From: a bacterium
GTDB taxonomy: Bacteria; UBA10199; 2-02-FULL-44-16; DYJF01
Assembly (NCBI GenBank): GCA_041739675.1
Contig: JBGSNL010000010.1
Span: forward strand, 1-16,865
Reading direction: 5' to 3'
Length of the DNA: 16,865 bases
Positions 4,539-16,865 of the stretch are shown piece by piece. The notes beneath the pieces are model-generated. The model had not been told where the DNA came from and did not search any database. It saw only the letters and a program-made list of their open reading frames with translations. Position 1 is the stretch's first letter. Each line of letters opens with the position of its first letter. A program made the translations under genes and the position numbers.

Positions 4539-5459
4539 GTGAGCGAATTATATGATGTCATAGTGATAGGCGGCGGGGCCTCGGGTGCAAGCGCTGCGGC
4601 CTTTACGGCAGGCCACGGCTGGAACACGCTGCTGGTCGATAAAAATATTCAGGACGGCTACCTTGGGGGCCTTGGCAATGTCTGCCAGTTTCCCGGCTTT
4701 CCCGACGGAGCTGTCGGCGCGGAAATCGTAGAGCGCTTGAGAAGGCAGGCCGAGAACGCAGGCGCGAAAACGCGCATCGCAGAAGCCACGGAAATCAATT
4801 TTGAAGCAGAGCCGCGCAAAGTGACGATCGGTGGCGAGACGCTTGAAGCGCAGACCATCGTTCTCGCAACCGGCGCGGCGGCCCGCACCGGGTATCTTCC
4901 CGGCGAAAAAGAATTTATGGGGCGCGGAGTTCTTCATGACGCAAAAATCGACGGGCCATGCAACGCCGGCTCCGAGATAGCAATCATCGGCAAATCGAAA
5001 CTCGCGGCCGACGAGGCCCTCTTCCTCACAAAATTTGCGCAGAAGATCCATTTTGTCATCCCGTCCAACCGTCTGGATGCGGATAACAAAATATTCGGAC
5101 TCATTCAGCATGACAAAAAGATAGAGCTCCATTTCAGCACGAGCCTCAAAACGATAAACGGGGGCGACAGGGTGACGTCGATCACGGTTTTCACCGGCGG
5201 ACAGGAAAAAGAGATTCAGGTCTCGACCGTCTTCACTTACATGCACGAATATCAGCCGATGAACCAGTTCATCAAGAACGCGCTGCAGACCGCGCAAAAC
5301 GGCTCGGTCATGGTGAACGAACAGTTTGAAACGTCGGCACCCGGCGTCTTCGCGTGCGGCGACATTCTGTGCGCCAAACCGCAGTTGCCGGCCATTTCGG
5401 TGGCGCAGGGAATACTCACCGGCATGGGCGTCGATCATTATCTGTCTCTTAAAAGGTAA
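4539..5459 (+). CDS. Thioredoxin-reductase-fold FAD-dependent oxidoreductase, atypical (no CxxC, degenerate NADPH motif)
   Basis: GTG start after GCGGAGG. FAD motifs DVIVIGGGASGASAA, IVLATGA and TSAPGVFACGD are present, as are FPGFP and PGEKEFMGRGV. The CxxC position reads HDAKIDG. Confidence 0.88.
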   Translation: MSELYDVIVIGGGASGASAAAFTAGHGWNTLLVDKNIQDGYLGGLGNVCQFPGFPDGAVGAEIVERLRRQAENAGAKTRIAEATEINFEAEPRKVTIGGETLEAQTIVLATGAAARTGYLPGEKEFMGRGVLHDAKIDGPCNAGSEIAIIGKSKLAADEALFLTKFAQKIHFVIPSNRLDADNKIFGLIQHDKKIELHFSTSLKTINGGDRVTSITVFTGGQEKEIQVSTVFTYMHEYQPMNQFIKNALQTAQNGSVMVNEQFETSAPGVFACGDILCAKPQLPAISVAQGILTGMGVDHYLSLKR

Positions 5460-5460
5460 C

Positions 5461-6123
5461 ATGCCCTTCAAAGCGATCATCTTCGATTTCGACGGGATCA
5501 TCACTGACACCGAGCCGGTGCATATGCAGGCGTGGCTTGAAGTCTTCCGCCCAATGGGCATCTCGTTCGGGAAAGAGGAATACGATACGCATTATCTGGG
5601 CTTGAACGACCGCGATTTTCTCGATGCGGTGGGCCGGATACACAACAGACCATTTCCCGCGGAAGAAAAAAATATTCTCATCGGCAAAAAACTCGAAAAG
5701 AGCCTCGCACTTTTAAGCAAGAGAATCCCGCTTCTTGACGGCGTCGAAGATTTTATCGAACTGCTGCAAAAAAAGTGTTTCTTTGCTATTTGCAGCGGCG
5801 CGAATAAAAGTGAGGTGAATTTCGTTTTGAAAAAACTGGAGTGGGCGGAACTCTTCGACCCCATCGTCACGCAGGAAGACGTCTCAAAAGGAAAGCCCGA
5901 CCCTGAAGGGTATAGTCTCGTATTGAAACGCCTTCAGGAGCGCGCGCCTTCGCACAATTTGACAGTCGATGATTGCCTTGCAATTGAAGATTCGCCGAAA
6001 GGAATCTCCGCCGCGCATGCCGCGGGGATCAAGTGCCTAGCGATCAGCAATTCATACCCACCCGATGCGTTAAATGAAGCCGAGTGGGTTCTCGAATCAC
6101 TTTCCGAATTTGAATTAGATTAG
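5461..6123 (+). CDS. HAD-superfamily phosphatase (beta-phosphoglucomutase/CbbY-like)
   Basis: Start reassigned to ATG 5461, 1 nt after the upstream stop. Motif I IIFDFDGIITDTEPVH, motif II ICSG, motif III GKPDPEGY, motif IV IEDSPKGI. Confidence 0.93.
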   Translation: MPFKAIIFDFDGIITDTEPVHMQAWLEVFRPMGISFGKEEYDTHYLGLNDRDFLDAVGRIHNRPFPAEEKNILIGKKLEKSLALLSKRIPLLDGVEDFIELLQKKCFFAICSGANKSEVNFVLKKLEWAELFDPIVTQEDVSKGKPDPEGYSLVLKRLQERAPSHNLTVDDCLAIEDSPKGISAAHAAGIKCLAISNSYPPDALNEAEWVLESLSEFELD

Positions 6124-7961
6124 CGGATGACTTCGAGTATCTTCGAAACTATCTTGTAGTTTCCGAACGGCGGGAAGATATAGGCGCCGGTGACCTGTTT
6201 TAGCCCTTTGGCCGCGGCAAGCGATTCTTTTGCAACCGATAATCCCACTTCCTGCTGCGCCTCTTTTGTGGCGGCCTTTTCCATCCGTTCTAGGATCTTT
6301 TTGGGGATCTGCATCCCGGGAACTTCGTTGTGCAGAAATTCCGCGTTTCTGATCGACGCAAGCGGAAGGATGCCGACAAGAAACGGAATGCGGGCGATAT
6401 CTTTGGTTCGATCGAAGAATTTTTCCAGAAGTTTTATATCAAATACGGGCTGTGAGAAAACGAACTCCGCGCCCGCCTCCACTTTTTTCCTGAAACGATT
6501 CACCTCAAGATCCAGATCGACCGCACCCGGATTGACGCCGCAGCCGATCAAAAGCTTTGTCGCTTCCTTCAGCGGACGTTCGGCAAAATCCAGCCCGCGA
6601 TTGAGATAGGAGACGAATTTTATAAGGCCTATCGAATCGATATCGAAAACTGCAGTGGCCTCGGGATAATTCCCCATTTTTGGCGGATCGCCCGTGATCA
6701 GAAGAACATTATTGAGGCCAAGCGCCGCCGCGCCGATCAAGTCCATCTGAATTCCCAAAAGATTTCTGTCGCGGCAGCAGTAATGGATGATCGGCTCGAT
6801 CCCCACCTGTTCCTTGATTAGAACGCCAAGGGCCATGGGGCTCATGCGCGCGACCGCGCGGGGCCCGTCGGCGATATTGACCGCATCGACGCCCATGTCC
6901 TTTAAAAGTTTTGCGCCGTCGATTGCGCTCTGAGGATTGATGCCGAGTGGCGGGTCAACTTCCACGCTGACCGTAAATTTTTTTCCGATTGCAGCGCCGA
7001 AGAGACTTTTCTCAGCAGTGGGAACAACTCTGATCCCGGGCGCCGCAGCAACCTCCGCTTTAGCGGCCCCGCCGTGCCGTGCGGGCTTTATGGCCTTCAG
7101 ATATTTTTTCGCCTCGCGGATATGAGCTGGTGTCGTTCCGCAGCAACCGCCGATGAGGGCGACACCCATCTGCGCGTATCTTCTCGCGTACTCCGCAAAA
7201 TATTCGGGCGACGCCAGATATATCAGGCGCCCCTGCACCATCTGCGGCAGACCGGCGTTGGGCATTGCCGACAAAGGCTTTGACGTCGCGGGCGCCATCT
7301 TTTTTATCGCTTCAAAAACGCCCTGCGGTCCGTCCGAACAGTTGACGCCGACCACATCGGCGCCCCACGAATCAATCGTGCGCGCGGCCTCCGCGGGGTC
7401 CAACCCCGCGAACTCCTCCTCGCCCATGTATTTCAGCGAAACCTGCGCCACAACCGGCAGATCGCACGCGGCGCGCACCGCCTTGTATGCTGTGTGAAGC
7501 TCTTCAAGATGCAAAAAGGTCTCAAGAATGATTACGTCGCACCCGCCGGATGCGAGCGCGGTAATCTGCTCTTCAAAAATTTTCTGCAACTCATCAGGCC
7601 CCAGAAGATCTGCGGATTTCACGGCCCAACTAACCGGACCGACCGCACCCCCCACGAACGCCTTATCCCCCGCAACCTCGTGCGCAATCTCCGCGCCCGC
7701 CTTGTTGATCGCGACAACCTTGTCTTCAAGTCCGAAGGCCGCAAGAGCCGGACGGTTGGCCGTGAAGGTGTTCGTTTCCAGAAGCCCCGCACCCGCATCC
7801 AGATACGTTTTATGTATCTCGCGGACCAACTGCGGATTGGATAAATTGAGCTCGTCATAGCTGCGGTTGATGAATATTCCGCGGCCGTAAAGCTCCGTTC
7901 CGATGGCGCCGTCGGCAAGGATGCCGTTTTCAGTGAGCTCTTTTAAAAAATTCCGCTTCAT
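6120..7961 (-). CDS. yitJ: Bifunctional homocysteine S-methyltransferase / 5,10-methylenetetrahydrofolate reductase
   Basis: 613 aa. N-terminal HMT domain (DGAIGTEL, ETNTF, GVNC, PNAGLP, IGGCCGTTPAHI Zn ligands) and C-terminal MTHFR domain (SVEVDPP, NIADGPRA, CRDRNLLG, ITGDPP, KKVEAGAEFVFSQPVFD, AEFLHNEVPG). Confidence 0.95.
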   Translation of the reverse strand: MKRNFLKELTENGILADGAIGTELYGRGIFINRSYDELNLSNPQLVREIHKTYLDAGAGLLETNTFTANRPALAAFGLEDKVVAINKAGAEIAHEVAGDKAFVGGAVGPVSWAVKSADLLGPDELQKIFEEQITALASGGCDVIILETFLHLEELHTAYKAVRAACDLPVVAQVSLKYMGEEEFAGLDPAEAARTIDSWGADVVGVNCSDGPQGVFEAIKKMAPATSKPLSAMPNAGLPQMVQGRLIYLASPEYFAEYARRYAQMGVALIGGCCGTTPAHIREAKKYLKAIKPARHGGAAKAEVAAAPGIRVVPTAEKSLFGAAIGKKFTVSVEVDPPLGINPQSAIDGAKLLKDMGVDAVNIADGPRAVARMSPMALGVLIKEQVGIEPIIHYCCRDRNLLGIQMDLIGAAALGLNNVLLITGDPPKMGNYPEATAVFDIDSIGLIKFVSYLNRGLDFAERPLKEATKLLIGCGVNPGAVDLDLEVNRFRKKVEAGAEFVFSQPVFDIKLLEKFFDRTKDIARIPFLVGILPLASIRNAEFLHNEVPGMQIPKKILERMEKAATKEAQQEVGLSVAKESLAAAKGLKQVTGAYIFPPFGNYKIVSKILEVIR

Positions 7962-8578
7962 TATAATAAAATGTCCTCCGTGGGCGCCGCCAGATATGGA
8001 TTGCTTTTTTTCTGATCGCCTATCGTGGACGTCGGTTTGGATCCGTAATCGTGGCCCGGATATACCGTGGTCTTATCCGGCAGTTTTGCGAGACCCGAGA
8101 GCGAAACCACCATCTCCCGAGGATCTGACCCCGGAAGATCGACGCGTCCGCATCCATCTACAAAAAGGGTGTCGCCGGTGAACAACGCATCGCCTATCAA
8201 AAAGGACTGCGACCCCGGCGTGTGGCCCGGCGTGTGGATGCAGCGTATTTTAACGCCCGCGATTTCGATCGTCTCGTCGTTCTTTGTTTTTCGCACGTCA
8301 AGATCGCCGGGAATCTCCCCCGCTTCCGCCTCATGCACATAAACGGGCACGGAGATTTTCCGCGCAAGGTCCTCCACCGCGTTGCAATGATCGAAATGAG
8401 TGTGGGTCAGAAGAATAGCCACGATCTTTTTGCCGCCCTTTTTCGCCTCATCTATTATCTGGTCGGCGCTCCATGCTGTGTCAATTGCAGCCACGCCGTC
8501 GCCCTCCTTTGAACCTACAAGGTAGGCGTAATTCATCATGGGGCCGATCGCTATCTGTTTGATAAAAAGATTGGACAT
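7961..8578 (-). CDS. MBL-fold metallo-hydrolase (glyoxalase II-like)
   Basis: THTHFDH metal motif, HTPGHTPGS, FTGDTLFVDGCGRVDLPG and VYPGHDY. Start reassigned to ATG 8578 (MSNLFIKQ), just after the DUF2203 stop. TAATG overlap with yitJ. Confidence 0.93.
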   Translation of the reverse strand: MSNLFIKQIAIGPMMNYAYLVGSKEGDGVAAIDTAWSADQIIDEAKKGGKKIVAILLTHTHFDHCNAVEDLARKISVPVYVHEAEAGEIPGDLDVRKTKNDETIEIAGVKIRCIHTPGHTPGSQSFLIGDALFTGDTLFVDGCGRVDLPGSDPREMVVSLSGLAKLPDKTTVYPGHDYGSKPTSTIGDQKKSNPYLAAPTEDILL

Positions 8579-8583
8579 GGAAA

Positions 8584-8955
8584 CTACTTGCCTAGTTCCT
8601 TTTCGACGCTGCCCGAAGTGAGGTCTCCGGAGGGGGCGCAGAAATAGCTCACGTGTTCGTCGCCAAGGCGCCATGTGAACCACCCCTCCCCGGCGTCAAA
8701 ATCCACTATCCAAAGACCCGTGGGTCTTAAACCCAGTTTTTTAAGCTTTACGGCCCAGCGTTTTATTATGAGATCAAGCTCCGTCGCCAGCCTGCCGAAA
8801 ATAGGCTCTTCGCGGGGGATGAAGCGAAGTTGCTCTTCGATTTTTTGGGCCTGTCTGGCAGCCTCCGCCGTTATCCTTTTGACGGTCGGGAGCAGGTTTT
8901 CGGCCTCCCCTTCCGTGAATTTCCTCTCGGAAAGTATCGGAATGATTTCAGCCAT
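8584..8955 (-). CDS. DUF2203-family protein (unknown function)
   Basis: 123 aa with the recalled DUF2203 pattern KFTEGEAENLLPTV...coiled segment...GLWIVDFD...WFTWRLGDEHVSYF. Family call is from memory of the motif, not from a search. Confidence 0.75.
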   Translation of the reverse strand: MAEIIPILSERKFTEGEAENLLPTVKRITAEAARQAQKIEEQLRFIPREEPIFGRLATELDLIIKRWAVKLKKLGLRPTGLWIVDFDAGEGWFTWRLGDEHVSYFCAPSGDLTSGSVEKELGK

Positions 8956-9007: not shown

Positions 9008-9036
9008 ACGCAACTTTTTATTGGAGGGACCGAAAA
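9008..9036 (+). promoter_or_regulatory. Conserved upstream motif copy 1, sigma-28 (FliA/SigD)-like promoter geometry
   Basis: ACGCAACTTTTTATTGGAGGGACCGAAAA = GCAACTTT-N11-ACCGAAAA, versus the sigma-28 consensus TAAAGTTT-N11-GCCGATAA. 22/29 identical, ungapped, to 12795-12823. Confidence 0.55.
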
Positions 9037-9106
9037 AGGGGCAGAAGGCGTACAGATTAACGTTGCGCGAGCAGTCCTAACCGGTATAGTTGATATTGAG
9101 GTCAAA

Positions 9107-10945
9107 ATGGCGCCTGAAAAACGTGACCTGGCAGTTCATGAAGCCTTTGATCGCGTCCGCGACTTCCTGACTTATCTTCACACTCCTTTCTCTTTTGCCG
9201 CCCTGAACGAAGTCGAAGAAGCGATGGCGAATAACGAGCCTCTAAGCGAGCATGAAGAGGACACTTGGCGAACCGTCATACGAACAATAAATGCCGCACA
9301 GGAAGGCGACAACTTCGAAGTGCAAAACCGCGCGGCACATCTGCGCGATGAATTTCTTGAACTTATAGGTCCTTTCACCTCCACAGTTCCGTCGATGCTC
9401 AGGTGGTATCAGGACGATTCATCCGTCCACAGGATCGCGCTCATCGCCGTTGACGTGAGAGGCAAGGCGATGGCTGCGGTGCGCCCGATCAATGTTACAA
9501 GCGCTGCCGCCCACGTTGACATGGGAAACGTCAGCGCGCTGGGAGGCGGCGAAGGAACGGCAACTATTCAGCAGAGAGATTTTGCCTGGACCGTGTTCCG
9601 CGATTCCGGCTCCAAGATTAACGCCATGGATATTTTCGAAAATACCCCCCCCATCGCTCTTACTATTCCGCCGGAATACCGGTACGATGAGCGATTCGGA
9701 TTGGATTCCTCTGCGGACACTGCGCTTATTCTGCGTTCTGCGCTGGAGGAGTTGAAGCTCATCGGTACAAAGGCCGTCCTCTCGCAGGATGTTCACCTGT
9801 TCGATATCCCTCAGGCAAGCACTCCGTCCGAAACGTCATTTTTTGGATTCGGCGCCAGAAGACTTCCCCCGGAGGAATGGATTGAGCTCATGGACGTGCC
9901 ACCATCGTTTAAGATGAAAGGTATTTTAAACGAAGAGATAACGCCGGAGATCGCCCGAACAGCCCTCAGAAATCTCGAACGTATCTACTACACCCTCAAA
10001 GAGGCGGGGATTGCCATGACGTCGTGGAACGAGGTCGTCATAAACCGCCGCACGGGTGAAGTCTTTCTTTCAGACGGGGACCTTCCTGTGCTGGTCAACA
10101 CCGACCTTCTTGAAAAGGCTTTGGCGAACCCTGAGGCTTTTTTGAGATCGGTTTACGAAAGAGATTCCTGGCCGCACTTTCCGAACCTTGTCGTTGTGGG
10201 AAGGTTTCGCAATCTCATAAAAGGGGACGCGCAGTTAGCAACGATAGTCCAGCTACTGGCCGACAAGGGCGGAGTCGAGTTGGGCACCGATATTGAAGGC
10301 CACGTTCAGAGGATCGTCGACAATTTCAGGCTTCTGGCCGAGTTCAAAGACGATCCGGTCCTCCGCGAAAGCGTCACGGACTTTCAAAAACTCAGAACGA
10401 TCCGGGTAATCGCGAAAAATTATATTGATGCTTTGGGCACAAATGGGATGCTCAACTTTTTCAGCTTTGTCATGAAAGAGATCGTGATGCGCGTGAAACA
10501 CGAAAAGTGGATCAGCGCAGCAGCCTCTCTTATCGAGGAAGCAATCATCTCCGGAGAGGCCAATGTGGATAAATTCTGGGCGAAAAACAGAGAGCGCATA
10601 ATGACGATGAACGAAGAGGGGAAAATCGAAAACGGCGGCGGAAGCAGCCCTTCGAACCCGCCGCCTGACGGTATTATAAATCCTGACGTGGGCGTGAACA
10701 GCCCGCCGAAGGCCGGCCAGGCGAAGGGGTCCACGGTCACGGGAACTTTTGAAACCAATGAAGTGTCGGGGGGCGGGACCATGCGCTTCCCGGGTGCGCT
10801 TTCCACAACACACATGCGTGTGGCGGCACATCAGCAGACTGACGTAGCCGGCCGCCGCATCCCCTACCATCACAATCTCGCCGTCTGGAGTGCGATGAGG
10901 GTCTTCGCGCCCGCTGTCAGGGGCACCATCCCCATACTGAACTGA
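9107..10945 (+). CDS. Hypothetical 612-aa protein, paralog of 10965-12764; possible degenerate kinase-like fold; Gly/Pro linker and basic C-terminal tail
   Basis: Long open frame. Start reassigned to ATG 9107 (MAPEKRD, GAGG 5 nt upstream) because the track's 8675 start overlaps two minus-strand genes and the paralog alignment begins near this Met. Confidence 0.85.
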   Translation: MAPEKRDLAVHEAFDRVRDFLTYLHTPFSFAALNEVEEAMANNEPLSEHEEDTWRTVIRTINAAQEGDNFEVQNRAAHLRDEFLELIGPFTSTVPSMLRWYQDDSSVHRIALIAVDVRGKAMAAVRPINVTSAAAHVDMGNVSALGGGEGTATIQQRDFAWTVFRDSGSKINAMDIFENTPPIALTIPPEYRYDERFGLDSSADTALILRSALEELKLIGTKAVLSQDVHLFDIPQASTPSETSFFGFGARRLPPEEWIELMDVPPSFKMKGILNEEITPEIARTALRNLERIYYTLKEAGIAMTSWNEVVINRRTGEVFLSDGDLPVLVNTDLLEKALANPEAFLRSVYERDSWPHFPNLVVVGRFRNLIKGDAQLATIVQLLADKGGVELGTDIEGHVQRIVDNFRLLAEFKDDPVLRESVTDFQKLRTIRVIAKNYIDALGTNGMLNFFSFVMKEIVMRVKHEKWISAAASLIEEAIISGEANVDKFWAKNRERIMTMNEEGKIENGGGSSPSNPPPDGIINPDVGVNSPPKAGQAKGSTVTGTFETNEVSGGGTMRFPGALSTTHMRVAAHQQTDVAGRRIPYHHNLAVWSAMRVFAPAVRGTIPILN

Positions 10946-10964
10946 AGAAAGAAAATATTAAAAT

Positions 10965-12764
10965 ATGAGTCCGCAATTTACCGATCCGATAAATACTTTG
11001 TTTGGTTATGTGCGCCTGCTGGGTGCCTCAAACGGCATAATATTTCTCTACGTAGACGATCTGGAAGAAAAGCTCCGCAGCGGAGAACCCTTCGATGCAA
11101 ATGAAGCCCAGACGTGGGGGGATATCTCAAGGATCGTGGGTCAACTGGACAATGAGACGGCAAAAAAAGCGCTGGACGAGTTGAACAGGCGATACAGCGC
11201 CACCGTGGCGTCCCAGGCCCGCGTGACATACCATCCTTTTTTCCAAAGCGGGCCGCGCGTGGAACATCTGAAACTCACCGCCATGGATATTTCCGGAGAG
11301 GCAACTACGCAGCAAAACCCGCTTGTATTCGTATCTCAACAACCAGTCGCTCTCGATTTCGACCAACTCTCCGATATAGCATGGAGCGCTCCGTTCCTGA
11401 CTTTTTCGCTGGATGAAAGATACTGGACCGTTCTTCTTACGGGCGAAAAGCTCCTTGCCGATGTAACAGATACATACATCTTTGACGCGGCACTTCTGAC
11501 CCGCATCTACCTGGGAGATAAGGGATATTTTCTGGGGAGAAGAAGTTTAATATTCTATGATGACATTCACTTCTTGAAAACGGACCAGCTTCCGGTATCT
11601 CCCGCGGCGAAACTCATCGGATTCAGTAGCCAGGCTCCAAATAGCGAAGGGTTGCTGCCCTTTTTCGTGAAAACGGGAGAGACCCCCGACGGGGAAATAG
11701 ATCTCGGTCCGAATCCCGCCATCACAAGGGAAAATGCCCAGAAGCTCCGCGAGAATTTTGTGAAACTGGGTCTGATGCTGAAATCGGCCGGCATTGTCAT
11801 GGACCGGACCGACTGGCTTCAGATGCAGTTCAACCCGGAGAGCGGTAAGTTGATATTCCATGAGAATGCCAGACCCTTCGTCTTCGACGCAGACCTTTTA
11901 TCGGCAGCGCTGGACGGGAACGGCTGGGCAGATAAGCCCGACTATCTTCCCGAAGAGACCGTTTATATTCCGGACCTCCGCATTTACGCCCAACCCGACC
12001 GCATCGTCGCAATACCTCATGAGTTTTTGATGGGAATTATCGGCATGCTGGACAACATAATAGAAGATCGGCAAGGCGATCAATACCGCAAGAGCATGGA
12101 AACGATTATCGATCTCTATATCCATCATGACGAGCAGGAAAACGATCTTTATACAAAATTTATCAACACATTCAGTGGAGGGATATTCAAGATAGCTCAA
12201 TACTACTTGAACACGATCGGCGACGACGGATTGTCCGTTTTCTTGAACCAGATATTCGCGGCGGTCATCATGATGACAAAGGGCGATTATGCCAACGTCA
12301 ATATAAACACCGATGAATGGTTTGACAAGGCGAAGCGTTTTATTGACGAGGCAAAACAGGAGGGCGGAAATTTCCACAGCTACTGGTTCAGAAATTACGA
12401 CCGCCTCTGGGGTATTGCAGAGGTCGTGACATTGAAAAGACGCGGCGGCGGCCGTGGCGGCCCGGCTCCGCAAAATGCCCCCGAGAGCGGCGGTGAAATG
12501 GAAGGCGGGCTTTCAGGCGGCCCCACTGGATTGGCAAGACCTGCAGAATCGACTGTCAGCGGGCTATTAATTCCGGACGAAACGACAGGCGGGGCTTTTG
12601 CATCGAGACAGATAGTGAGAGCAGCGGAAAACACCTTTAATTATAGACACTTAAGAAGGCAAAATCCGGCTATTAACACCATAAGAAGCGGGCAAAGGGT
12701 CTACCAAAGACCTGCGCTACCTGTCGCCCTCCGCCCCGCACAAACCTTGACTTTCAGCCCGTAA
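10965..12764 (+). CDS. Hypothetical 599-aa protein, paralog of 9107-10945
   Basis: Long open frame 19 nt after the previous stop (A/T-rich spacer, no clear SD). Colinear similarity to the upstream ORF over its whole length. Confidence 0.88.
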   Translation: MSPQFTDPINTLFGYVRLLGASNGIIFLYVDDLEEKLRSGEPFDANEAQTWGDISRIVGQLDNETAKKALDELNRRYSATVASQARVTYHPFFQSGPRVEHLKLTAMDISGEATTQQNPLVFVSQQPVALDFDQLSDIAWSAPFLTFSLDERYWTVLLTGEKLLADVTDTYIFDAALLTRIYLGDKGYFLGRRSLIFYDDIHFLKTDQLPVSPAAKLIGFSSQAPNSEGLLPFFVKTGETPDGEIDLGPNPAITRENAQKLRENFVKLGLMLKSAGIVMDRTDWLQMQFNPESGKLIFHENARPFVFDADLLSAALDGNGWADKPDYLPEETVYIPDLRIYAQPDRIVAIPHEFLMGIIGMLDNIIEDRQGDQYRKSMETIIDLYIHHDEQENDLYTKFINTFSGGIFKIAQYYLNTIGDDGLSVFLNQIFAAVIMMTKGDYANVNINTDEWFDKAKRFIDEAKQEGGNFHSYWFRNYDRLWGIAEVVTLKRRGGGRGGPAPQNAPESGGEMEGGLSGGPTGLARPAESTVSGLLIPDETTGGAFASRQIVRAAENTFNYRHLRRQNPAINTIRSGQRVYQRPALPVALRPAQTLTFSP

Positions 12765-12794
12765 TACCGTTAAAAGGCGCTCCCTCAAGAAAGT

Positions 12795-12823
12795 ACGCAA
12801 CCTTTTTTTGAAATAAGCGAAAA
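12795..12823 (+). promoter_or_regulatory. Conserved upstream motif copy 2, sigma-28-like promoter geometry
   Basis: ACGCAACCTTTTTTTGAAATAAGCGAAAA = GCAACCTT-N11-AGCGAAAA, the same spacing as copy 1, ending 13 nt upstream of ATG 12837. Confidence 0.55.
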
Positions 12824-12836
12824 CTACGCAAAAACT

Positions 12837-15800
12837 ATGGCAACAGACCTTATAGCTAATTTATCGTCGGATTCACAAAGACGCCAGGACGCGGCCAGGG
12901 CGGTGGAAGAATACGTGGCCCGCACGAACCCCACGGGCAATGAACTTTCGAACCTCAGGCAAATCCGCGACGCCCTTTTGGTCGAGGGCAATTCATTTAT
13001 AGCGCTTGACGAAACCCAGACGGAGCTGCTCGGGCGAATCACAGGGGCAAGCGCGCCGTCCGCATTGGCATCCGCCGCCAGATTTTCGGATACCGCCCCG
13101 GCGCTTGATCTGTATGTGCCGTTCGTTCAAAGACGGGGCGGCGACACCCTTCGCACATTCATAGACGACAATCTCGATGCGTTAGGTCTTGGCATCGGTG
13201 TTTCTCCAGCTGAAAGACGCGAACTTGTTCAGAACTTTTTTGAAAAAACCGGCATCAGACTGGGCACCGCCAAAAGATGGGGCACGCCGCGCGAAAATAA
13301 CGAATTTGTCGAACCCGCCGATCTGGATCAGGTCCTCGCGGTTTTCACGTGGCTGGACAACCAAGCGAGAGAAAACGGCGCCAGAGTCGACATCATCGAA
13401 TATTTTGCGTCGATTTATCCGCAAATCGCATCGATGATCGAACGCTCCAGCGGAAACGAGATCGTAATCCGCGTTCCGAAGTTCATGGAGGGGATATCGT
13501 TCGACGAATACAGCTACTCAAGTTTCGCTCAGGCGGCGCAGCGCGCAAGGCTGGTCCCGGAGATGGCCGAAGCGACAAAGGGCGGCCACATAAGGGGTGA
13601 AGTGGAGCGCCCGCGCTTTGAAACGCTCGATAGATACGCAACACTGATATCGCAGAAGGCCGAAGGAGACGATGCCCATCGCCGGCAAATATTCGACTTT
13701 CTCGTGGTCTTGAGACTTCTTTCGATATTTAAAAACACGGTTCCGATCCGCGACGAAGCCGGAAGACTCCTCACCACGCCGAATCCGCTTGTGAGAACCG
13801 CATACGCAATTCGTATTGTTCCTGAAAACGAGTTGACCGATTATCTTTCGTTCGCCGGAACCGCCCGCTTCAGCACACAGAGATGGCCCTTCTCCGATAT
13901 CGCTAGCGGGCGAATGGACCGCATGTTCGACATCCTTGAAAGACGGCTCACTGCGATGAAATTGCTCTCATCTGTGATCGAAACAGATGAAGCGCAGATG
14001 CGGCAGTTCGAGCAGAGATTGGGCGAATTTACTGTCCAACATGAAATTCATAAAGCCAACATTCAGGACCGCAATGCCCCTGCTGAAGTGAGAACACTTG
14101 AATATTTGAACGAGGTAAAGGAATTTTACCGCAGGTTCAATCTCTTCTTCGGACAGAAGCTCTTCTACACACACATCCGCGGTACGGTGCAGCAGGGAAA
14201 CATAACGGCCGCCTTTGAGATAGTTCCAAAGATAAACGGCATACCCATCAACTCTTTGGCCCACGGCCGCGTGACCGTTTTCACGGACGATTTAATCGAG
14301 ACGGCCAATCGAGAGGACTGGCCGGAAGGTGAACTTGAAACTGCTTTCAAGCTTAGAGTGATCACGAACCGTATGGTTGCAAGCGGCGCCGCAGATAGAA
14401 GCATCCTGGACTCCGCGCAATCGATTTTGAGCGCGGTTACGGGGCTTAATCTTGGAATCGACGCAGGACTTCTTTCAAAAGCGGCAGATGCCCTGGTGGC
14501 GCTAAATAAAAAAACGGGCGGAGAAGATGCGGTCGAAACGTCGCTTTATTCTTTTTTGAGGCTTCGAACCACAGGCACCCAGCCTACATCCCGTTATTAT
14601 CTCTACAGCGCAATGCCATGGCAGACAAAGATGGCAGAGTATTACCAGTCGCAGGGCTATTCCCCGGATACGTTGGAGATAGACACAGCGATTGCCGAAT
14701 CCTACTTCGTTTCGGTGAGACATCCCCTGTTTGTCTACAACGAAGGAAGATTGGAATCTGAGATTTCAAAATTATACGACAACCCGCAAGATGCGTCGGC
14801 GGCGCGCGAACGCATGATCGGATTTTTCAAAGCCATCGGTGTGCGCACCGACCCGGCGGAGATCCATCCTCTGACTCCGGAAGAAACAGGGCCCGATCTC
14901 AAAGCGATCGAATGGGCGTTCCGCGATTATCTCGAACTTTTCCCCGGAGCAAGGGTGCTCGGCGCACAGATTGAAATCAACGAAGCGCTGCTCGTTGAAG
15001 TTGTCGACCGTCAGATAGCGGAGCATCCGAATGCGGGCCTCCGCCGCGGCTTCATCATGCGGGGCGTGAAAAAAGCAATTGAAGATTTCAACCGCGGCAG
15101 AACCCAGTCGCTGGGAGAGATAGCCGTGGAAAATTATCCACTTCCCACCGGCGGACTTCTCGATAAACGATTCAACGCCTTTGTAAGCAGCTGGGAAGCA
15201 AGGACAGGCGCCCAGCTTGACCGCACGGCGCTGCTCGTCACCTACAACATCCTAAAAGACAACGGGCTTTCAGCCGACGCAATTGAAGACAACTTGAGAA
15301 ATGCGGGCGTTGCCGAACTGGATTTGGACGACCATATAGAATTTATGACCGAATGGCTTCCAAGAAGCCGCGCGTACCGCAGCGCCTTTGAGCATGTTAT
15401 CACCGCCGGCGATGTCACACAATTCCTTCAAAAAAAGGAAAACGAGCAATACAATTCACCGCTTGTTTCGGCGGAAGATATTGCATCCATAGCGCTTGAA
15501 TACGTGAAGCAGCGCCTCGCATCTCCCCCGCAAATAAATGTCGACGTGGATTCGATCATCGCCTCGCAGATCGGACACAGTTTCGATCCGTACCCTTCCG
15601 TCAAGGCCCAGGCAATCCCCTTCTACCGCATGATGGTGGGTCTTTATCTGAAAGACCTATACCCGCGCGTAAAGGAGCTTCGGGAACTGGCCGTCGCTGC
15701 AATCGACGATGCAGCTGAAACTTTCGAGGGCTTCGACTACGCTGGTGCATATACTGCTCTTGAAAGGTCGGTTTTAACTACGCTCGGATTTTCAAACGCG

Positions 15801-16865
15801 GAAGATCTTCAGAGACTCGATCTGCAGGTAACGCTTCTGTCTGAGATCTTGGGCACCCCCGAACCGTATGCGCGTCTCATGGATAGAATGGGCCGCGCCT
15901 ACAACAGGTTCGATGCAAGAATGCATGCCGCGGCCGTTGAAAATGAAAGACGGGAACATGCGATCGCCCTGGCCGAAGGAACGCTTCAGAATTTCATCGG
16001 AGACGTTGAAAGATTCACGTTCCAATATTCGGCTGCAATTTTTGCCGATGGCATGGATCGCGGCACAATTGCCAGGGCAAGGGCGAAAATTGAAGAGGGA
16101 TTGAGAACGGCAAGCGGGCTCACCAGACAGTTCAAAGGCTCCGTAGACAGTGAGTGGGACGAATTCAAAACTTTGGCACCGATTGTCGGCAAGGAGGACC
16201 ACTTCACGGAGATACTCGATGTCGTTCCAGATACTATTGGAGCTCTCGAGGCAAAACTGAGAGAAGAAGAGGAGCTTTTAGATCTCCGCCTTGAAGAGAT
16301 AGGCGACGAGGAAAAACAGACAGCCATCAATTCGGATGCGATGCAAACCGTATCACAGGCGGACAAACTGAAAGACAGAATTTCAGCGCTTGAAAGTACG
16401 GTTACCGGCGCTGCTTCGAATATCGACGACTTCCGGACAACCAACATCGGTGCTGCCCTCAGTTCTCCGCCGGCAACTGAGAACTTTGATTCTTACAACC
16501 TCGCATGGGCAAATTTTACGAGTTTCTCACAGCATATCGATAGTTACAGGCAACAGATCGAATCGCTTCAAAAAAATCTGGACGAGTTGGCCGCCGATCC
16601 GGTCGCCGCACAGCTTCACGTCTCCGAAGAGATTGCCACGGACGACGCGAGGACAAGAACTCAAAAGGCGAGAGAGGATCTTGAGCAGGTTGTATCCGCG
16701 GCGCAGACGGCAATTGAAGATGCGCGCTCAAAACTTTCGGCCGCCGAAACGGGGCTTCACAATCTCGAATTGAAACTTCAAAGCGATGAGGCATTAATCG
16801 CACTTCCATCATCCGTAACGATGCCTCAGAGGACCAGCATCGCAAATACTGAACTCGTCCGCCAG
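12837..16865 (+). CDS. Very large hypothetical protein, 3' partial (at least 1343 aa), largely helical with a coiled-coil-like distal region
   Basis: Not in the ORF track because it has no stop in the window. Manual translation from ATG 12837 (MATDLIANLSSDSQRRQDAARAVEEYVARTNPTGNELSNLRQIRDALL...) stays open for 4029 nt to ...SIANTELVRQ. The track shows only short alternative-frame or antisense ORFs here. Confidence 0.88.
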   Translation, partial: MATDLIANLSSDSQRRQDAARAVEEYVARTNPTGNELSNLRQIRDALLVEGNSFIALDETQTELLGRITGASAPSALASAARFSDTAPALDLYVPFVQRRGGDTLRTFIDDNLDALGLGIGVSPAERRELVQNFFEKTGIRLGTAKRWGTPRENNEFVEPADLDQVLAVFTWLDNQARENGARVDIIEYFASIYPQIASMIERSSGNEIVIRVPKFMEGISFDEYSYSSFAQAAQRARLVPEMAEATKGGHIRGEVERPRFETLDRYATLISQKAEGDDAHRRQIFDFLVVLRLLSIFKNTVPIRDEAGRLLTTPNPLVRTAYAIRIVPENELTDYLSFAGTARFSTQRWPFSDIASGRMDRMFDILERRLTAMKLLSSVIETDEAQMRQFEQRLGEFTVQHEIHKANIQDRNAPAEVRTLEYLNEVKEFYRRFNLFFGQKLFYTHIRGTVQQGNITAAFEIVPKINGIPINSLAHGRVTVFTDDLIETANREDWPEGELETAFKLRVITNRMVASGAADRSILDSAQSILSAVTGLNLGIDAGLLSKAADALVALNKKTGGEDAVETSLYSFLRLRTTGTQPTSRYYLYSAMPWQTKMAEYYQSQGYSPDTLEIDTAIAESYFVSVRHPLFVYNEGRLESEISKLYDNPQDASAARERMIGFFKAIGVRTDPAEIHPLTPEETGPDLKAIEWAFRDYLELFPGARVLGAQIEINEALLVEVVDRQIAEHPNAGLRRGFIMRGVKKAIEDFNRGRTQSLGEIAVENYPLPTGGLLDKRFNAFVSSWEARTGAQLDRTALLVTYNILKDNGLSADAIEDNLRNAGVAELDLDDHIEFMTEWLPRSRAYRSAFEHVITAGDVTQFLQKKENEQYNSPLVSAEDIASIALEYVKQRLASPPQINVDVDSIIASQIGHSFDPYPSVKAQAIPFYRMMVGLYLKDLYPRVKELRELAVAAIDDAAETFEGFDYAGAYTALERSVLTTLGFSNAEDLQRLDLQVTLLSEILGTPEPYARLMDRMGRAYNRFDARMHAAAVENERREHAIALAEGTLQNFIGDVERFTFQYSAAIFADGMDRGTIARARAKIEEGLRTASGLTRQFKGSVDSEWDEFKTLAPIVGKEDHFTEILDVVPDTIGALEAKLREEEELLDLRLEEIGDEEKQTAINSDAMQTVSQADKLKDRISALESTVTGAASNIDDFRTTNIGAALSSPPATENFDSYNLAWANFTSFSQHIDSYRQQIESLQKNLDELAADPVAAQLHVSEEIATDDARTRTQKAREDLEQVVSAAQTAIEDARSKLSAAETGLHNLELKLQSDEALIALPSSVTMPQRTSIANTELVRQ

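Follow-up and report, generated by a model that had tools for sequence, protein, structure and literature searches.

The window analysed here, the 16,865 nucleotides (nt) of contig JBGSNL010000010.1 in assembly GCA_041739675.1, carries three large open reading frames (ORF1, ORF2 and ORF3) on the plus strand after a run of housekeeping genes, and the question it raises is whether their products, which belong to no recognized family, are the cargo of an export machine. A preliminary description had taken them for substrates of a Sec-independent exporter expressed under an alternative sigma factor, for example effectors of a predatory or host-associated bacterium. The window is the entire contig C47 of a genome of 1.91 Mb in 88 contigs, referred to here as G000. 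We find that the C-terminal tail of ORF1 and ORF2 recurs on approximately 40 proteins of G000, that the sequence repeated ahead of ORF1 and ORF3 belongs to a genome-wide set of sigma-28-like promoters, and that a Sec-independent type III secretion system is encoded elsewhere in the genome. The proposal as a whole is partly supported by these findings, from which we infer export and, possibly, a predatory or host-associated life.

None of the three ORFs contains a cysteine, and all have low isoelectric points (pI 4.9–5.3) and few lysines (3.1–3.7%). A Pfam scan of ORF1 to ORF3 gave nothing over cut-off and an NCBIfam scan no match at E<=1e-4, in agreement with the earlier remark that they fit no recognized family. 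A hydrophobicity scan detected no signal-peptide-like or transmembrane (TM)-like stretch in ORF1 or ORF2, so that this part of the earlier description holds for these two; ORF3, which is open at its 3' end, lay outside the scan. ORF1 and ORF2 are paralogous across almost their full length (21% identity over 554 columns, E 1e-19), well beyond the C-terminal arrangement of linker, motif and basic tail for which they were originally paired, and they lie 19 nt apart and are probably co-transcribed. The ORF1 start, an ATG after GAGGT, agrees with the equivalent methionine in an orthologue from the same genus (genome G001). Homologue searches with ORF1 in a collection of 5.8 billion proteins returned only ORF1 itself among 8,000 candidates each, the PDB sequence search gave no match, and the ESM Atlas held nothing at >=0.9 for ORF1 and no usable match for ORF3. 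A 35% homologue of ORF1 is present in genome contigs (L210, not counted as independent), along with a weak metagenome fragment (L209).

The tail was traced with an iterated hidden Markov model (HMM) seeded solely with the C-terminal 85 residues of the ORF1 and ORF2 products and searched against stop-terminated six-frame segments. The model converged on 38 of 14,570 segments in G000 at E<1e-3, with a gap in the scores between 8.5e-9 and 1.2e-3, and a 36-row alignment of the tail (A1) gives 40 matches. The motif S-T-V-[TS]-G-[LT]..[GN]-E-[TV]-S-G is located 62–73 residues from the C-terminus in all 39 of 39 proteins, preceded by a linker rich in glycine, proline and serine. The last 50 residues contain 15.7% arginine and 18.3% alanine, 0.3% lysine and 1.2% aspartate plus glutamate, and their net charge ranges from +4 to +12 (mean +7.4 compared with +0.8 for the proteome; +7 in ORF2). 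AlphaFold assigns residues 502–612 of ORF1 a predicted local distance difference test score (pLDDT) of about 20–32, and this region is predicted to be disordered.

Local paralogue groups aside, the bodies that carry the tail are mostly unrelated orphans, as a genome scan was expected to reveal if the original proposal was correct. Only three of the 40 tail proteins scanned have a Pfam match over cut-off (GHKL ATPase, SNF2 helicase and HD_4). A signal-peptide-like start is found in none of 37 tail proteins compared with 348 of 1286 other ORFs, and a TM-like stretch in one of the 37. Cysteine is absent from 20 of 39 and makes up 0.18% of residues compared with 1.1%; its absence is a tendency of the tail set, not a rule. 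In total 41 genes on 20 contigs bear the tail or a long form of it, and together with ORF3 they occupy about 91 kb, or 4.8% of the genome. Codons at the tail motif vary synonymously without constraint, indicating that the motif is kept at the protein level. An origin of the tail as a DNA repeat was considered and rejected, as exact shared runs of at least 20 nt are confined to 11 of 703 pairs, every one of them within a single gene array on contigs C36 and C37; selection acts on the protein.

The long form was encountered at the C-terminus of ORF3, which the preliminary description had singled out for checking. G001 has the same gene order as the window and a complete ORF3 orthologue of 1977 amino acids (aa), of which residues 14–1351 align to ORF3 in the window (36.6%) and residues 1360–1930 to the end of contig C6 (28.6%, E 2e-54). 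The full protein is probably about 2000 aa long and continues on C6, where the tail motif lies 126 residues from the end and is followed by a short tryptophan-containing insert and a basic end. A second long-form tail is found on contig C34. The ends of C47 and C6, like those of C36 and C37, share no exact overlap, and both adjacencies therefore rest on synteny. Weak matches to SipB and FliJ at ORF3 residues 1213–1307 are under cut-off and are read as generic coiled coil. An assembly artefact was rejected as a source of these ORFs, since contigs from two other studies, about 90% identical, span long parts of ORF1 to ORF3.

The C36/C37 array (G000:C36:91-9785 and C37:23-10316) probably consists of eight tandem tail genes between a kinase gene and sctU. 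Its members have the N-terminal 30–65 aa and the tails in common, but their middles mostly differ, which looks like recombinational shuffling of cargo bodies. One member (G000:C37:5725-8754) has a RelA/SpoT-type HD hydrolase domain with intact alarmone-hydrolase motifs that matches a solved HD protein at E 1e-22, which makes it a possible suppressor of the stringent response in a target.

The 29-bp motif common to both apparent transcription units is borne out by the comparison of its two copies, which are identical at 22 of 29 bases while the best of 300 random upstream pairs reaches 19. Both copies are retained in G001. A position weight matrix (PWM) of fixed length, iterated from the two copies, finds 60 sites scoring at least 18 in G000 compared with one in a reversed-genome control. 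The consensus consists of an A/T run, GCAAC-TTTT, a spacer and then GCCGATAA, which is a -10 box at the spacing of sigma-28 (FliA) promoters (G45 C40 C59 G60 A60 T42 A57 A59 over the 60 sites). Judged against the extended sigma-28 consensus of E. coli and the Bdellovibrio box, the -35 element TAAAG or TTAAG is not matched and GCAAC-TTTT stands in its place. All 41 genomes tested from the class have a fixed pattern of this promoter, in 3–71 copies each (0–2 in the reversed controls). Only three genes of the sigma-70 family were found in G000, one RpoD-sized, one RpoH-like and one FliA/WhiG-like that a contig end truncates.

A promoter site immediately precedes 17 of the 41 tail genes compared with 27 of 842 other ORFs of at least 300 aa, an odds ratio of 21 for which the p value is overstated, given that window sites served as seeds for the PWM and that paralogues are not independent. 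Five further tail genes follow a site through an upstream gene in the same orientation, five are at a contig edge, and 14 have none. The regulon also includes 30 genes without a tail, 11 of them with signal-peptide-like starts, and the promoter occurs ahead of smc and a DEAD-box-like helicase gene; it looks like a life-stage programme rather than one restricted to effectors. The co-regulated cassette originally proposed is not a local one: the locus is one of about 20 scattered ones, and the promoter is neither specific to effectors nor present at every tail gene. No site was found ahead of the type III genes on contigs C5, C87, C31, C12 or C66.

Regulation of this kind has a parallel in Bdellovibrio bacteriovorus, in which TTAAG-N16-CCGATA is found in 92 of 140 attack-phase promoters according to the part of that study available to us (PMC3627812). 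The -10 box is the same, and a global sigma-28-type life-stage switch likewise extends over many non-flagellar and uncharacterized genes. The predicted G000 promoter differs in its -35 element, in that 39 of 41 genomes of the class lack flagellin, and in that the sigma gene lies in a non-flagellar type III cluster. A top-scoring site in G000 ends at position 4725 (plus strand) of contig C38, inside a dnaG-like ORF and some 2.5 kb upstream of the RpoD-sized sigma gene. G001, G002 and G003 have near-identical sites, and the site may be an internal promoter restoring the housekeeping sigma factor or a coincidence of coding. Just upstream of the FliA-like gene is an orphan of 129 aa with no family match (G000:C5:19283-19672; L108:5284-5670). 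ORFs of similar size precede the FliA-like gene in G001, G022 and G035, a possible position for an exported anti-sigma factor.

The type III system of G000 is dispersed over several contigs. SctV (C31) scores 791.8 bits against a cut-off of 692, higher than as FlhA, and SctJ, while under cut-off, is matched at E 3e-39 compared with only 1e-10 for FliF. The sctJ gene is located on C5 with genes for a TPR protein and the FliA-like factor, and C87 encodes SctT, SctR, SctN and an SctL that is FliH-like, plus FliK-like, FliM-like and FliG-like proteins. SctR is over cut-off, SctT just under it (E 3e-43), and SctU (C37) scores 356.4 against 358; SctN is over cut-off, with FliI clade 2 scoring equally. 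SctS was scanned in G022. Two LcrH-like chaperones (C12 and C66) are encoded next to unassigned ORFs that could be divergent translocators.

The same machine is found across the class. Among 41 genomes, SctV is found in 40 (37 over cut-off), SctJ in 39, a FliA-like protein in 38 and flagellin in two, not including G000 (rod, hook and motor genes lay outside the search). Of the 37 relatives having both, 32 carry the FliA-like gene on the contig of sctJ, at a distance of about 4 kb or less. Two genomes, G014 and G033, have a full flagellar FliA, an FlhA-like gene and flagellin alongside the class-wide cluster. In G022, sctT is immediately followed by two promoter sites, which stand at the start of a stretch of orphan genes with a TPR gene. 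That region (L236:8591-19711) contains five large orphan ORFs, the TPR gene and a 298-aa ORF; two of the orphans end in a common ..AELQQEE..MRF helix, and these ORFs are candidate filament or translocon parts. In G000 four tail genes directly precede sctU, with probably four more on C36 across a contig break, and the end of C36 stops within a promoter motif. At the sctU locus of 11 of 20 relatives, a divergent kinase gene lies 61–208 nt from sctU.

The exporter inventory called for at the outset yielded no exporter besides the type III system that is Sec-independent. VirB10 was found in none of one genome, and TssC and the contractile sheath were unmatched in G000. The VirD4 family was absent from G000 and from all three family members among the genomes, with one weak partial match in 21 genomes. 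Dot/Icm was checked only via its ATPases, with no DotB-best ATPase, and a heuristic listing of Walker A motifs in ORFs longer than 380 aa included no VirB4-like ATPase. The best match to HlyD of type I systems scores 36 bits against a cut-off of 209, and no RTX-type repeat family was found among 40 tail proteins. A search for CesT gave 0 of 21 and is uninformative, its controls being equally silent. Type II secretion and type IV pilus genes are present, and PF00437 is over cut-off in GspE, PilB and PilT. Substrates of type II secretion need a Sec or Tat signal, which the tail proteins lack.

Among known systems the G000 machine most resembles a non-flagellar type III system reportedly labelled 'Myxo' by Abby and Rocha in 2012. 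The best named matches of SctV, with 1/64 of the collection scanned, are from Archangium (52–54%). As far as the available parts of three reports describe it (PMC10433427, PMC12075869, PMC3459982), the myxobacterial system is without secretin and needle, has LcrH homologues, and its effectors are unknown. The needleless system of Myxococcus xanthus (T3SS*, MXAN_2434-2464) and that of G000 both have the export apparatus, SctJ, SctN, SctL, C-ring-like parts and LcrH-like chaperones, and neither has a dedicated secretin, a recognizable needle or flagellin. The systems differ in that the three PF00437 matches of G000 include no Tad/Kil-type ATPase, and in that the G000-type system is near-universal in a class of small-genome bacteria and carries a FliA-like gene.

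Based on these observations, we consider it fairly probable that the tail proteins are type III cargo. The narrower proposal, that they are such cargo and that the tail is the element recognized within the producer, is more tentative, and we would place it slightly below an even chance. A FliA-like sigma factor would read the promoter motif in one life stage and turn on over half of the tail genes. The motif and basic tail of some 40 proteins would then be bound in the producer's cytoplasm by the myxobacteria-like type III machine or by a chaperone, and the bodies would be delivered into a contacted cell, where they might serve as enzymes or mimic them; the products of ORF1 and ORF2 would be degenerate kinase-fold cargo. 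Several recognizable bodies would need a cytoplasm in which to act (the SNF2 helicase, the GHKL ATPase and the HD domain, and in G001 an ABC1 kinase). The target is taken to be probably a bacterium because these bodies are of bacterial type and no ankyrin, leucine-rich repeat, F-box or similar family was matched in the 40 plus 28 proteins scanned.

The relative G001 (83% complete) has its own version of the tail, V-[ST]-[GA]-L-[LM]-x-x-G-E. In a hand-assembled list, 22 of 26 G001 proteins fit this pattern, 21 of these at 51–63 residues from the end, and the last 40 residues have a net charge of +2 to +6 with 0.4% aspartate plus glutamate. A G001 profile of 14 sequences finds 22 places in that genome at E<=0.05, 14 being the seeds, and none in G000, G002, G003 or G004. 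The G000 and G001 tail profiles align over 19 core columns only (probability 21.5%, E 0.001). For 16 of the 26 G001 tail proteins, the body homologue is a G000 tail protein. The bodies of orthologues are 20–50% identical compared with 81% for SctJ. In ten orthologue pairs the tail cores score 13.2, close to the 11.6 of non-orthologous pairs across the genomes, while pairs within a genome score 34.5 (G000) and 19.5 (G001), values that are inflated by anchoring the cores with genome-specific patterns, which counts against our interpretation; an eleventh pair, in which the G001 protein lacks the motif, was left out. These scores fit a concerted change of the tails within each genome, which would be expected if one partner reads all of them. 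DUF7790 is over cut-off in three tandem tail proteins of G001 (L150:192-4815).

Several results weigh against the proposed role of the tail, and the strongest objection is the mismatch in range between a tail limited to one genus and a machine found throughout the class. The A1 profile has no match in 40 relatives including G001, a tail-profile search of the protein collection returned only G000 proteins among 7,999 candidates, and no such tail was seen among the regulon ORFs sampled from G002 (44), G008 (35) and G009 (61), genomes that keep the same type III machine and promoter. A signal recognized by conserved core components would be expected to occur more widely. The two distributions would be reconciled by a chaperone specific to the genus; none was identified. 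No dedicated secretin SctC was found, the two secretins of G000 scoring best as GspD and PilQ, and no needle, tip or translocon family was matched by Pfam among 30 cluster-linked proteins, which leaves the exit route without recognizable parts in a genome rated 94.6% complete. Likewise to be counted on this side are the 14 tail genes without a promoter site, the five others at contig edges and the adjacency of tail genes to sctU, which is limited to G000, could be due to chance among about 20 loci and would be weak evidence alone.

A further difficulty is that canonical type III signals are N-terminal, as stated in the portion of the literature consulted (PMC10025392). The tail proteins could therefore be type III cargo that leaves through ordinary, poorly conserved N-terminal signals, with the tail acting after delivery, for instance as a membrane or nucleic-acid anchor or as a determinant of protein lifetime. 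The first 20 residues of tail proteins are in fact rich in serine, threonine, proline and glycine (0.35 compared with 0.23) and poor in lysine (0.016 compared with 0.072), and a tag M-x-[SAGV]-[GA]-[GA], picked post hoc, begins 15 of 37 compared with 11 of 1286 other ORFs. This tag could be an N-terminal export signal, perhaps the real one, and a tail tuned to a lineage-specific target would explain both the genus limit and the differences between species. However, the tag is missing in 22 of the 37, including ORF1 and ORF2. That helicases, ATPases, hydrolases and kinase-like bodies should all share one identical address for use after delivery is also less expected than a common export address, and an acidic motif at a fixed distance from the end is more specific than a patch of charge. 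We regard this explanation as unlikely, at about one chance in four. The tag also begins four of 30 other regulon proteins and the product of the final gene in the type III operon of G001; its carriers are on C36, C37, C54, C71, C6, C8 and C81 of G000 and at L237:9212-10345.

It is also conceivable, if rather improbable, that the proteins remain in the cytoplasm of the bacterium that makes them and that the tail marks them for sorting or turnover in a particular stage, for example as a protease adaptor site, an address for a storage body or a nucleic-acid-binding arm. The recognizable domains are those of ordinary cytoplasmic enzymes, the promoter also precedes the non-exported smc and helicase genes, and the type III system was found without an outer-membrane channel or needle. 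However, 4.8% of a genome given to fast-diverging orphans with modular ends, and the swapped middles of the C36/C37 array, look like an arms-race repertoire, and an encapsulin shell gene was found in none of six genomes (controls were positive in three). A different export route, through a type IV or type I system that escaped recognition or assembly, or by delivery linked to pili or vesicles, is more doubtful still, for although arginine-rich C-terminal signals and a motif-plus-tail layout are reported for type IV substrates in the available parts of two sources (PMC10025392, PMC8740702) and the genome, being incomplete, does have type II and type IV pilus genes, the type IV and type I components searched for above are absent or far under cut-off and type II is closed to proteins lacking its signal.

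Returning to the type III reading, C-terminal addresses have precedents elsewhere. G000 tails have the positive charge and conserved motif that are C-terminal features of type IV effectors. In the X-Tfe effectors of the antibacterial type IV system of Xanthomonas, unrelated bodies carry a C-terminal module, XVIPCD, with motifs followed by a compositionally biased tail (PMC8740702, available portion). The XVIPCD is about 120 aa, folded, glutamine-tailed and read by VirD4, whereas the G000 tail is 62–73 aa, predicted to be disordered, and rich in arginine and alanine. In addition, no small immunity-like genes are evident, from gene lists only, between the tandem tail genes. Flagellar type III export makes use of C-terminal signals and chaperone-binding sites (FlgE, FlgC, FlgG and the late-subunit chaperones; PMC10936197, in part). 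The known cases are structural subunits that each have a signal or chaperone of their own, and a single portable tail for dozens of cargo proteins is not described in the literature searched. Those searches, judged by title and the start of the abstract and with subscription journals mostly outside them, returned nothing on the tail or on secretion in the lineage. The tail family is apparently undescribed; each of its ingredients has precedent, and their combination was not found.

The bodies of ORF1 and ORF2 may have a kinase-like fold, which on structural comparison we favour by a narrow measure. Confidence in the AlphaFold models is low (pLDDT 43 for ORF1 and 37 for ORF2). Foldseek with a trimmed ORF1 model gave 46 of 46 rows with the kinase fold (best E 0.012, none at E<=0.001). 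In VIA-align all 14 rows at ORF1 residues ~250–390 are kinases or within the chain range of Rio2, and the best are the minimal effector kinases NleH1 (Z 6.4, root mean square deviation 3.1, 83 aligned), OspG and HopBF1, together with Rio kinases (Z 5.7–6.4, all under 8). Unlike these proteins, ORF1 has no conserved HRD or DFG aspartate; no invariant catalytic-loop or DFG aspartate was found at alignment positions 204–416 of three homologues. If it is a kinase fold, it is probably inactive or atypical.

Type III effectors are normally identified through an N-terminal signal that lacks a consensus, whereas here one short profile defines a closed list of about 40 candidate substrates for a machine type whose cargo is described as unknown, together with a matching promoter and sigma factor. 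If the tail is the signal, it would be a portable type III address at the C-terminus, contrary to the N-terminal rule, with a targeting code that changes in concert across a genome. Even if it is not, a class-wide sigma-28-like regulon linked to a type III cluster without a flagellum suggests a contact-dependent life stage in a large uncultured lineage, and the tail set and regulon offer dozens of new protein families. The broadest picture is that of a class of small-genome, uncultured bacteria that kept the flagellar sigma-28 switch, lost the flagellum and deliver proteins into other bacteria through an ancestral needleless type III system, in this genus about 40 of them with a portable, concertedly changing C-terminal tag. 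We put this forward only as a conjecture, with roughly one chance in three of being right as a whole. The features of the window are listed in the table.

Table. Features of ORF1 to ORF3 and their upstream regions, in window coordinates unless a contig is given
Feature	Position	Strand	Details
Promoter motif, copy 1	9008..9036	+	GCAAC-TTTT ... CCGAAAA; 16 nt from GCAAC to CGA; PWM 30.6
Ribosome-binding site GAGGT	9098..9102	+	From sequence; precedes ORF1 ATG at 9107
ORF1	9107..10945	+	612 aa, 0 Cys, pI 5.3; orphan, ORF2 paralogue, tail-bearing
ORF1 residues ~250-390	9854..10276	+	Possible degenerate kinase C-lobe (weak); low-confidence models
ORF1 linker	10619..10729	+	Gly/Pro/Ser-rich, from sequence; predicted disordered
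ORF1 tail	10730..10942	+	STVTG..E..SGG and basic Lys-free end; alignment A1, E 3e-16
ORF2	10965..12764	+	599 aa, 0 Cys, pI 5.0; tail-bearing
ORF2 tail	12549..12761	+	STVSG..E..GG and Arg-rich end; E 8e-13
Promoter motif, copy 2	12795..12823	+	13 nt upstream of ORF3 start; PWM 33.9
ORF3, N-terminal 1343 aa	12837..16865	+	Open at contig end; orphan, 0 Cys
ORF3, putative continuation	G000:C6:75522-73600	-	Match to G001 orthologue; ends in long-form tail

The remaining genes of the window look ordinary. Those at 837-1711, 6120-7961 and 7961-8955, all on the minus strand, include genes for a metallo-beta-lactamase-fold protein and a DUF2203 protein, and by eye we take other neighbours to be NuoA/NuoB-like and homocysteine methyltransferase/MTHFR-like. 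In G001 the orientation of the methyltransferase gene relative to ORF1 is reversed, and no counterpart of ORF2 is present at that place.

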